DNA from: a virus
Taxonomy: Duplodnaviria; Heunggongvirae; Uroviricota; Caudoviricetes
Direction: 5' to 3' (one strand)
Length of the DNA stretch: 40,488 nt
IMG/VR virus record: IMGVR_UViG_2700989521_000020
Shown here: positions 27,001 through 30,000 of the stretch, in pieces
Position numbering within the stretch: position 1 is the stretch's first letter
Layout of the letters: each line of letters opens with the position of its first letter
Made by a program: the position numbers

Positions 27001-30000
27001 CTGTGGTGCGCTTAGTCTGGGGCTGAATCATTACCGTGATAACGCCATCGCCTACAAAGAGCAGCGCGATAAAGCCACATCCATCATCGATGATATGCAG
27101 AAGCGGCAACGTGATGTAGCAGAACTTGACGCCAGATACACAAAGGAGCTTGCTGATGCTAATGCGACTATCGAAAGTCTCCGTGCTGATGTTTCTGCTG
27201 GTCGTAAGCGCCTGCAAGTCGCCGCCACCTGTGCAAAGTCAACGACCGGAGCCAGCAGCATGGGCGATGGAGAAAGCCCAGGACTTACAGCAGATGCTGA
27301 ACTCAATTATTACCGTCTCAGAAGTGGAATCGACAAGATAACCGCGCAGGTTAACTACCTGCAGGAATACATCAGGACGCAATGCCTGAAATAATTTTTT
27401 TGCAAATCACAAAGTCCATTTAATGAGCCCCGCGATGCGGGGCTTTTTTATGTCCGCAGTAAACGCGCTTCACACGCGCGACTTATGAACACAGAACCTT
27501 TCAGGATGACCCTTGAGGATGCCGGTTTGGTGATCGGTGCCTTTCTGTGGGCCGGAATCCTGTGTGACAAGGTTCATCACTTAAAGGTGTGCACTGATGA
27601 ATTATCCAACTATCGTTAACGGCATCGATTTTCGAGATCTGATTTTTGTGGCAAACAACGATCCGGTTACAGATTCTTTTATGGTGGCAAAAGCATTTGG
27701 AAAGCTGCCGAAGAACGTAGTTCGTGACATTGAACGAACCATAGAAGCTTGCCCTCCTGAGTTTGATACAAAGCTCAACTTTGAGCTTTGCTATAAAAAC
27801 AATGAGTTACAGAATGGTAAGCCGCAAAAATTCTACCGTCTCCGCAAGGATGGGTTGATGCTTTTGGTTATGTCCTACACCAAAAAAGAAGCAATGCGTA
27901 TCAAAATTGCTTACATCAACGCATTTAACTGGATGTACGCCATGCTTCAGGTTGGTCATCGTCAATTTGAAGAAGAGAGAAATGCCGTAATGCTGGAGTA
28001 CATGAAAGAGAAGGATGTTGCCAGCATGTCAGGTCGCCTGCTAAATCGCTGGGGCAAAATTAAGAAGCCACAGCTGCTGGCTAGAATTGAACGCCTTGAA
28101 CAGCACGGGCAAACCGTAATCCCCGGACTCATCAATTAACGGCAGTACCGCGAAACAACCCAAGCCAGTAAGTGGGGAAATAACACTGGCAGCCACTGAA
28201 AGATGAACCTCCAGCCTTATGGCAAAAAAGATTCTTTGTGGTGGCGGACTGATGGAAAGACATCGGTTATTGCAGAGGCCATTCAATGAGTGGTCTTGAC
28301 AATGGCTTATACCCTACACGGGATAACTTAATTGATATCCTTTTTAACGGATAAAGGCATTTCAGCCTGACATAGCCATGCGCCGCATCGTCGCCGTATT
28401 CCCGCATTAACAGAGACCGCAGCCACCTTATCTGCGTGAGTGTGCGGGGATAATCAAAAACGATGCACACCGGGTTTTCTCATTTTTCACGAGATGGGAG
28501 CGATTTCCCGCGAAGCCGCCTGTCCGGTGCGGTGGTGGAAGAAACCGGATAAAACAACCGCATTGTGCAAATATCGATCAAATATGGTGCTGCTGTGTGA
28601 AATCTGAAAAATCACAGCGGTCATTATGCATCAGTTTTTAACACAGGACGTCAGAACGTGACATGGCAAAGCTGGACTGGAAAAAGCTGGAGCAGGCATT
28701 CCGACGCGAACATGCCGAAACGGGAATAACATTACTGGACTGGTGCCGGAAGAAAAAGATTAATTACAACACCGCCAGAACCCGTATAAAAATGGGCAAA
28801 ATCGATCATGAAATTGATCATAAAACCGATCATGAAATCGATCATGACATCTCAGATGAAGAACCCTGCAATGACGCGGGTTCCGGCGATGAAAAATGCG
28901 CAAAAAACTCTGAAAAAAACTGCGCAAATTCGGCAGAAACGAAACGGATTCGTGGTTCCCGACTTTTACCTCCTTCAAACGCTTTTTCTCAGCGAAACAC
29001 CCACGCCGTAAGACACCGTGGATATGCGAAGTATCTTGAGGCAGATAACCTCATGGATGATGCGTCCGACATGGTGCTGTTCGATGAACTGGTGTTCACC
29101 CGGGCCCGCGCACTTTCAGTAACTAAGGCACTTAAAGGGATGTTCGCCGACCTGGAAGAGGCAACTGACGTGGAAACCCGTGTTGCTCTTTACGACAAAA
29201 TACTCAAAGCTGAACAGGCCCTTGACCGGAATATTGCCCGTATCGAGTCAATTGAACGCTCATTGCTGACGCTGGACGTCCTGGCTGAGACAGCACCAAA
29301 ACTTCGTGCTGACCGGGAAAGAATCAACGCCGCCAGAGATAAACTCAGAGCTGAAACCGATATTCTGACCAGCCAGCGTCGGGGCGTTGTTACGCCTGTC
29401 AGTGACATCGTGTCATCGCTGCATGAAATGAGTAATTCGGGGAGACTGGATGACATTCCGGAAGAATGAACCGCGATGTGATGAGCCGTCAGAAATGACC
29501 GAGGCTGAACAACGTCTGTTCATCATGACTAAACTGAGCAATCCCTGGTGGCGGCTCAATCATCTCTACAAAATACAGAACGAAAAAGGTGAACTGGTCA
29601 CCTTCAGAATGCGACCGGCGCAGCGCCAGTTGTTCCGGAGCATGCACAATAAAAATATTATCCTGAAAGCGCGCCAGCTGGGATTTTCCACAGCCATTGA
29701 TATTTATCTTCTCGACCAGGCATTATTCATTCCGCATCTCAAATGCGGGATCGTCGCTCAGGATAAACAGGCTGCCAGTGAAATTTTCCGCACAAAAATT
29801 GCTGTACCGTTTGATCATCTCCCTGACTGGCTGAGAGCCTCATTCACCATCGTTGAACGTCGTAGCGGTGCCAGCGGTGGCTATATCCTGTTTGGGCACG
29901 GCTCGAGTATCCAGGTGGCAACCTCATTCCGTTCAGGTACGGTGCAGCGCCTGCATATCTCAGAGCACGGCAAAATTTGCGCAAAATATCCGGCTAAGGC

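Follow-up and report, generated by a model that had tools for sequence, protein, structure and literature searches.

We analyzed a 40,488-nucleotide (nt) stretch of a tailed-phage genome (IMG/VR record IMGVR_UViG_2700989521_000020; the whole stretch is called the window below) and studied a tandem array of GATC-containing hexamers within its small-terminase gene, terS. The comparative evidence suggests that the array is this lineage's form of a hexamer array that is embedded in terS throughout the family and covaries with the helix-turn-helix (HTH) domain of the encoded protein, TerS. Our preferred reading, to which we give a probability of roughly 60%, is that the four YGATCA hexamers of the array, probably with two TGCGCA hexamers 51 bp downstream, serve as TerS recognition elements of a headful packaging (pac) site.

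A first-pass annotation of the sequence had placed four GATC sites within terS in a 12-bp phase, and the direct reading of the stretch (cGATCATgaaatTGATCATaaaacCGATCATgaaatCGATCATgac) and Tandem Repeats Finder agreed on all four. The program reported a 12-bp repeat of 4.4 copies with the consensus AAATCGATCATG and a score of 78, and a repeat-family scan recovered the same four in-register copies. In gene coordinates, the array spans nt 140–182 of terS, with GATC at nt 141, 153, 165, and 177. The hexamers read CGATCA, TGATCA, CGATCA, and CGATCA, giving the consensus YGATCA(T), and one of the four is identical to the TGATCA of phage P1. They encode the peptide K-IDHE-IDHK-TDHE-IDHD, residues 47–62 of TerS, at the start of a linker predicted to be disordered. 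The identity of the gene as terS was confirmed by its PHROG match (Table 1), and the placement of the repeat in the linker after the HTH, also proposed in the first pass, was supported by an AlphaFold2 model built from 34 homologs. The model has a three-helix HTH (helices at residues 6–20, 24–30, and 35–41; predicted local distance difference test [pLDDT] 75–87), a segment of pLDDT ~31 at residues 48–118, and a confident helical hairpin at residues 130–237 (pLDDT >90).

To place the array in its family, we collected terS loci of 26–100% identity from IMG/VR, GTDB genomes, GenBank phages, and assemblies and added P1 pacA separately; we refer to window-type (GATCA) terS genes as G1 and to the TGCGCA-type terS genes of Escherichia coli as G2. 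All examined relatives with this N-terminal domain carry three to nine hexamers at the slot of the array, spaced by ~9–14 bp, the sole exception being Vibrio phage K250, the most distant relative (26% identity, helix type ARVK), in which no obvious array was seen. In nearly all of these relatives, the slot that holds GATCAT in the window is occupied by the palindromic TGCGCA, present in three to nine copies per gene at nt ~130–305 and separated by A-runs. Across 45 nonredundant genes, we counted 280 copies of TGCGCA in nt 100–330 (27 per kb) vs. 45 copies in the remaining 172 kb of the same loci (0.26 per kb), making the array region ~100-fold enriched; the modes of the spacing are 9, 10, 12, and 14 bp. 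The G2 arrays hold one in-register TGATCA among their TGCGCA copies, and the two hexamers therefore share one 12-bp register. Outside the tandem units, both G1 and G2 relatives retain the pair of TGCGCA hexamers found downstream in the window, and G2 relatives have a further TGCGCA at nt 130, where the window has the degenerate TGGGCA (repeat family D2: AAAAATGGGCAAA / AAAAATGCGCAAA / AAAACTGCGCAAA). We read the TGCGCA pair in the window as residual copies of the family-wide hexamer, and the GATC array is one part of a composite with this pair and the degenerate unit.

The TGCGCA arrays of the relatives allowed us to separate constraint on the DNA from constraint on the protein. The copies use all three reading frames (216, 54, and 10 copies), being read as xxT-GCG-CAx (S/N/T-A-Q), xTG-CGC-Axx (L/V/M-R-K/N), and TGC-GCA (C-A). 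At synonymous sites, the Ala of the A-Q/H dipeptides in the linker is encoded by GCG in 220 of 243 cases (91%) compared with 18% in the C-terminal domain of the same genes, and the codon preceding that Ala ends in T in 91 and 25% of the cases, respectively; as the sequences are related, the P value of this test is inflated, while the effect size is not. Because three reading frames are used and the synonymous bias is extreme, the sequence comparison clearly points to DNA-level selection on the arrays of the relatives.

The type of the hexamer follows the protein, and TerS residues 39–41, within the predicted recognition helix, covary with it. We tallied the most frequent 6-mer in nt 100–360 of each terS gene and read the arrays directly. 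Helices of the type ARRY or ARRH are accompanied by TGCGCA in E. coli G2, Citrobacter, Aeromonas, Morganella, and Xenorhabdus prophages as well as in Klebsiella phage ST11-VIM1phi8.2 and Escherichia phages PHB10 and 666R9, the last three having different, longer C-terminal bodies. In this class, TGCGCA or an overlapping word was the top 6-mer in 45 of 49 nonredundant loci, the exceptions being P1 and three Xenorhabdus loci with only three copies each. The AKRY helix is accompanied by TGCGAA/TTCGCA in three of three loci (Klebsiella phage RothD, Yersinia phage vB_YenM_06.16-1, and a Pectobacterium prophage), which involve two C-terminal bodies and both orientations of the hexamer. Finally, ART(R/Q) is paired with YGATCA in all 18 loci, comprising the lineage of the window (ARTR) and the Salmonella prophage L112 (ARTQ). 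The window, with four YGATCA copies 12 bp apart following a PacA-like HTH of the type ARTR, thus shows the family arrangement: three to nine copies of an enriched hexamer, ~9–14 bp apart, matched to the helix of the preceding HTH.

The comparison of G1 and G2 indicates how such pairings are inherited. Their TerS proteins are ~99% identical in the C-terminal domain, while the HTH and the linker differ; the HTH and the array therefore move together as a module, and the pattern implies recombination that swaps the N-terminal part. The mosaic is visible in terS at 28663–28960 when compared with two G2 loci (L038 and L040) and with L112, a junction lying near the conserved segment ...TGCGCAAATTCGGCAGAAACGAAACG. 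The C-terminal body of the window also occurs with unrelated N-terminal HTH domains (L118 and L119), and other hexamer arrays are then found at the same gene position. In L119 (1628–1700), these are three copies of GGTACG and inverted copies (CGTACC), and in L118 (1646–1710), two copies of TCCGTC plus inverted GACGGA; TGCGCA is absent from terS in both.

The first-pass annotation had suggested that the DNA motif rather than the peptide is under selection and proposed comparing the GATC phasing with the peptide among terS homologs. The prophage L112 provides this comparison. Its TerS is 61% identical to that of the window overall, and its HTH matches the TGCGCA type at 36 of 46 residues and the window at 31 of 46. 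The GATC sites of L112 lie at gene nt 141, 153, and 165, retaining the positions and the 12-bp phase of the window, and the array AGT GAT CAA AAA AGT GAT CAA AAA AAC GAT CAC is translated as SDQKSDQKNDH in place of IDHEIDHKTDH. What is conserved between the two is YGATCA, the seventh base being A, C, or T and toggling the residue between Q and H. The L112 comparison thus favors the DNA over the peptide as the conserved entity, and, together with the three frames and the synonymous bias of the wider family, it upholds the suggestion of the first pass.

The domain preceding the array is related to that of a phage with a defined pac site. The PHROG family phrog_1711 represents PacA (the P1 protein has an E value of 4e-202 against it), and residues 5–94 of the window TerS match it at E 3e-5, one Aeromonas and one Xenorhabdus homolog doing so at 2e-8 and 6e-6, respectively. 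In the reciprocal search, PacA matched phrog_370, the family of the window TerS, at E 1.9e-4, and BLASTP aligned TerS residues 4–90 to PacA 1–91 at E 0.009 and 24% identity. On these profile and pairwise matches, the N-terminal domain of TerS appears remotely homologous to the N terminus of PacA; the relationship covers only ~90 residues, and the C-terminal parts are unrelated.

A pac site is also expected from the biology of the phage. The window is 99.9% identical over 28140–29500 to the Shigella Shiga toxin 1 (Stx1) phage POCJ13, a 933W-like member of Sepvirinae; the terS–terL region is 99.5–99.9% identical to those of Sepvirinae Stx phages, and the array region of 933W is 99.6% identical to that of the window. 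Phylogenies of the large terminase subunit, TerL, place the 933W-type terminases in the headful class (PMC7317114, PMC6029569). The virion DNA of 933W is terminally redundant, and the phage performs generalized transduction (PMC3752737), from which headful packaging follows. The window itself encodes a 933W-type TerL and a P22-like portal. As the 933W-type TerL is of the headful class, a pac site must exist.

Table 1. Coordinates of the array, its proposed partner elements, and the terminase and portal genes in the window
Feature	Position	Strand	Basis or remark
terS, small terminase, 268 amino acids	28663–29469	+	PHROG 370, E 4e-125; N-terminal HTH, disordered linker, C-terminal helical hairpin (predicted)
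PacA-like N-terminal HTH coding segment, residues 1–46	28663–28800	+	phrog_1711 match
Predicted recognition helix, residues 35–41 (YNTARTR)	28765–28785	+	AlphaFold2 model
Degenerate hexamer TGGGCA	28793–28798 (gene nt 130)		Slot of the frame-1 TGCGCA (L-R-K) in TGCGCA-type relatives
12-bp tandem array, A-rich spacers between hexamers	28799–28851	not assigned	Proposed left arm of the TerS recognition (pac) site
YGATCA(T) hexamers of the array	28803–28808, 28815–28820, 28827–28832, 28839–28844		Dam site in each
GATC sites	28804, 28816, 28828, 28840		12-bp phase, inside terS
GC-richer 51-bp spacer between the GATCA array and the TGCGCA pair	28846–28896		Candidate cleavage region by analogy with P1
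Two palindromic TGCGCA hexamers	28897–28902, 28921–28926		24 bp apart; reading frame 0 (Cys-Ala); possible right arm
terL, large terminase	29450–31156	+	PHROG terminase families; 20-nt overlap with terS
Portal gene, P22-like	31156–33300	+	Pfam PF16510, E 3e-131

Several observations weigh against the pac reading. We found no mapped pac site for 933W-like or Sepvirinae phages in the literature. P1 PacA has an ARRY helix yet uses TGATCA, so that the code between residues and hexamers is not simple; in particular, a "RY to TR" specificity code that we considered is weakened by this case. Unlike in P1, no match to the IHF consensus WATCARNNNNTTR with at most one mismatch was found in 27797–29648, a range that includes the sequence between the two parts of the site. 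In the SF6 and SPP1 systems, the isolated DNA-binding domains of TerS show little sequence specificity for pac repeats (PMC4737164), so that proximity to terS does not by itself make repeats HTH sites. Within the lineage of the window, the Asp of the hexamers is encoded by GAT in seven of seven codons vs. a background of ~58%, a weak signal; the four units share a reading frame and arose by recent duplication, which leaves little DNA-level signal in this lineage alone. Finally, alleles with one, two, three, four, five, and seven units exist, and four are thus not strictly required.

The clustering of GATC is of limited value in weighing these points. The tetranucleotide is depleted over the whole window (101 sites vs. 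167 ± 10 expected), as is GATCAT (17 vs. 27), and random placement of the 101 sites brings four of them within 40 bp in ~1% of the trials. This null is too generous, however, and chance is the wrong null, because clustered sites are what any tandem duplication produces. What matters is whether the location and the maintenance of the repeat have a reason at the level of DNA, and it is the comparative evidence that addresses this.

One answer, which we consider unlikely, is that the array is a neutral 12-bp slippage minisatellite tolerated in a disordered linker, with the GATC sites incidental and the real packaging site at the TGCGCA pair or elsewhere. The repeat does behave as a variable-number tandem repeat, being polymorphic among near-identical sequences: it has one to seven units in otherwise nearly identical genes, all in one reading frame and in a linker with pLDDT ~31. 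Moreover, the generic pattern GATCA-N7-GATCA-N7-GATCA occurs in at least 120 unrelated viral contigs of IMG/VR and, among the matches listed, only 2 of 129 occurrences lie beside a PacA-like HTH, so that the pattern by itself has no diagnostic value. The distribution of the copy number fits neutrality less well. Of 220 phage records, 189 match the array region at 99% identity or more, which means four units, and the same level is reached by 349 of 388 E. coli genome records; together, four units are present in ~90% of ~600 sequences. Three units are found in ~10%, including a group of Stx2a phages, and the alleles with one, two, five, or seven units are rare, the five-unit allele including a 57-member cluster and the seven-unit allele being seen once. 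(A protein search with the N-terminal part alone returned mostly truncated or frameshifted entries and was useful for copy-number variants only.) The first-pass annotation had held that a freely varying repeat number would speak against a role in packaging; the number does vary, but it is strongly centered on four, which slippage within a functional array could also produce and which does not by itself refute function. The neutral explanation also has to account for the GATC sites of L112, which keep three positions of the window array while the peptide differs, and for the location of the array in the slot and the 12-bp register of the DNA-selected arrays of the relatives, with a hexamer that tracks the recognition helix. 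Phage P1 tolerates the loss of hexamers, with reduced efficiency.

An unusual allele was seen in L083 (LC727843.1), in which an IS629-like element (TGAACCGCCCCGGGTTTCCTGGAGAG...) directly follows a three-unit GATCAT array (locus 2501–2700) and truncates terS at approximately codon 59. Some eight Stx2a prophage records are similar (H133–H140). Judged by their sequence, these interrupted prophages should be packaging-defective.

Alternatively, the array could be a Dam- or SeqA-sensitive regulatory element unrelated to TerS recognition, acting on the timing of the late operon or sequestering newly replicated phage DNA. SeqA binds pairs of hemimethylated GATC sites, and in that state the four sites together would make a strong target for it. 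With four GATC sites at 12-bp intervals, the array has at the sequence level what SeqA binding calls for, namely two or more sites within ~31 bp on the same face of the helix; the 12-bp spacing places the sites nearly on one face, and GATC is depleted elsewhere in the window and clustered here. We nevertheless consider a regulatory element of this kind improbable. The same slot holds TGCGCA or TGCGAA in the relatives, and, as these contain no GATC, the role of the slot does not need Dam; in addition, Rfam, promoter, and terminator scans of 28100–29000 found nothing.

Two further explanations carry very little weight. The Asp/His-rich peptide DHEIDHKTDHEIDHD might bind metal or mediate contacts of TerS with TerL or the portal, given that Asp-His repeats can chelate Zn or Ni and that P1 PacA has D-H dipeptides at this position as well, but L112 has a different peptide with the DNA core kept, the dipeptides of P1 are encoded by its experimentally defined pac hexamers, and the segment is predicted to be disordered and tolerates one to seven units. 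Equally far-fetched is the idea that the palindromic hexamers form mRNA hairpins tuning the translation of terS or terL: the RNA is predicted to fold better than shuffled sequences (z = –2.8 for the window region and z = –2.9 for an Aeromonas array), but any array of palindromic hexamers gives such scores, the AKRY-type arrays are direct repeats of the nonpalindromic TGCGAAT, the spacing and number of units differ by lineage and hence provide no common structure, and Rfam finds nothing at the array.

Of the recognition-site reading, a mechanism can be sketched, although the binding of TerS to the hexamers, the cleavage nearby, and any effect of Dam are what we infer by analogy, and the term pac is used here in that sense. 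In the predicted architecture, the HTH domains are joined by flexible linkers to the C-terminal helical hairpins, and several HTH domains of a TerS oligomer could contact successive hexamers approximately one helical turn apart, the A-runs between them allowing the DNA to be bent or wrapped. TerS would then recruit TerL, which would cut nearby and start rightward headful packaging. The sites would lie within the DNA encoding TerS's own disordered linker, an arrangement by which the HTH and its sites would travel together as one cassette. Any methylation of the array would come from the host Dam, because the annotation of POCJ13, whose genome is nearly identical, lists no Dam methylase of the phage's own. 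Dam control cannot be a property of the family, since most relatives use TGCGCA or TGCGAA and these contain no GATC.

More broadly, the terminases with a PacA-like HTH could form a swappable system of a reader and its address, with residues 39–41 specifying the hexamer (RRY/H for TGCGCA, KRY for TGCGAA, and RT(R/Q) for YGATCA) and with the Stx lineage having switched to a Dam-methylatable hexamer, its packaging gated by host Dam as in P1. We put this forward tentatively, as somewhat less likely than not. Were it true, the initiation of packaging and, hence, the output of Stx phages and their transduction would be gated by the Dam methylation state of the host. The Stx phages are vehicles of Shiga toxin genes and perform generalized transduction, and for them the analysis offers a candidate of ~125 bp (28793–28926), and a candidate of this precision would allow engineering packaging-defective prophages or packageable plasmids. 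The pattern between the helix and the hexamer spans phages and prophages of Escherichia, Salmonella, Citrobacter, Klebsiella, Yersinia, Pectobacterium, Aeromonas, Xenorhabdus, and Morganella; it might permit the prediction of pac sites from sequence and offer a natural setting in which to study DNA reading by an oligomeric TerS.

The surroundings of the array were also inspected. The window extends from an integrase gene (1–1164) past stxA (20841–21797) to the tail genes. The 520 bp upstream of terS (28140–28660) contain no long open reading frame and no promoter or terminator consensus; the left part of this stretch (28140 to ~28350) varies among close relatives, one of which has an insertion of ~400 bp. 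An upstream ATCGATCA at 28573 was considered as a fifth unit or a second arm and rejected, as the TGCGCA-type L038 has it too and the G1 relative L116 lacks it. The terS product had no match in Pfam, phmmer found no homolog among PDB sequences, and a Foldseek search of the model against PDB returned coiled-coil noise only. Many database entries labeled "terminase, partial" are frameshifted terS genes (P0004, P0005, P0008–P0010, P0016, and P0019–P0034), the frame being lost in the A-runs of the linker (28846–28940 of the window); sequencing error or real slippage could be the cause. Elsewhere in the window, Rfam reported two matches at the gathering score, the small RNAs STnc100 just 3′ of stxB (22155–22368, plus strand, 195 bits) and sRNA-Xcc1 (16869–16952, plus strand, 80 bits). 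Within the STnc100 match, the minus strand has a second GATCAT pair exactly 12 bp apart (acGATCATcaaagaGATCATacc, 22227–22244), which is probably unrelated to the array in terS. Searches of the literature for PhageTerm results or for TGCGCA in connection with terminase, returned nothing relevant.

Among the known packaging systems, lambda cosB resembles the proposed site in having short repeated elements (R1–R3) for the N-terminal winged HTH of the small subunit, gpNu1, placed beside the cutting site. The lambda system differs in being a cos system with fixed cohesive ends, in having sites that are intergenic or upstream of Nu1, and in its dependence on IHF (site I1), and no homology connects the two. 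The pac sites of SPP1 and SF6 share with the window direct repeats (boxA, boxB, and boxC) and AT runs at the start of terS, their intrinsically bent DNA being wrapped on the TerS ring. In SF6-type rings, adjacent HTH motifs lie approximately one DNA turn apart, and AT runs interrupted by GC steps have been reported to favor wrapping (PMC4737164). The repeats are poorly conserved between SPP1 and SF6, however, whereas the hexamers of the window family are sharply conserved and covary with the recognition helix. P22 and Sf6 have a pac within terS of a temperate headful phage with a P22-like portal (PMC11260489), as proposed here, but the P22 site, midway along gene 3, consists of one asymmetric element of ~22 bp and not of a phased hexamer array, and P22 TerS is not homologous.

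The closest parallel is that with P1, drawn already in the first-pass annotation. As we confirmed in its sequence and annotation, P1 pac consists of seven TGATCA/G hexamers in two groups (4 + 3) at nt 193–232 and 323–351 of pacA, with cleavage at approximately nt 275–284 and an IHF site between the clusters. Cleavage is carried out by PacA/PacB with IHF/HU. The site is regulated by Dam, and packaging drops 9-fold when the hexamers are recoded synonymously (PMC10028697). Between the two TGATCA clusters, the center of P1 pac (L104, 1510–1535; AATGCGAAGCGCCAAAATAAGCGCATAAATGATCG) contains TGCGAA and AGCGCA, units of arrays elsewhere in the family; this may be coincidence. Parts of the parallel do not carry over. 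In P1, the two clusters are 96 bp apart and flank the IHF site and the mapped cuts, whereas the window has one strictly tandem cluster of four, with only one exact TGATCA, no IHF consensus, and, 51 bp downstream, a second cluster formed by two TGCGCA that are not of the GATC type. PacA, of 397 amino acids, has a C-terminal part unrelated to that of TerS; neither TerL nor the virion is related to its P1 counterpart (a 933W-type podovirus vs. the P1 myovirus); and POCJ13 has no annotated methylase of its own. Other parts hold up well. In both phages, the small-subunit gene itself contains the sites, immediately 3′ of the HTH segment and starting at nt 193 in pacA and at nt 140 in terS; the hexamers are repeated, each with a GATC, and share their core (one window unit is TGATCA, the others CGATCA); the spacing is 11–15 bp in P1 and 12 bp in the window; the hexamers encode Asp-His dipeptides in PacA and in the window TerS; and P1 and the 933W-type phages are both headful and transducing. 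The analogy with P1 is thus drawn because the reader domains are remotely homologous, the gene position is equivalent, and the hexamer core is the same.

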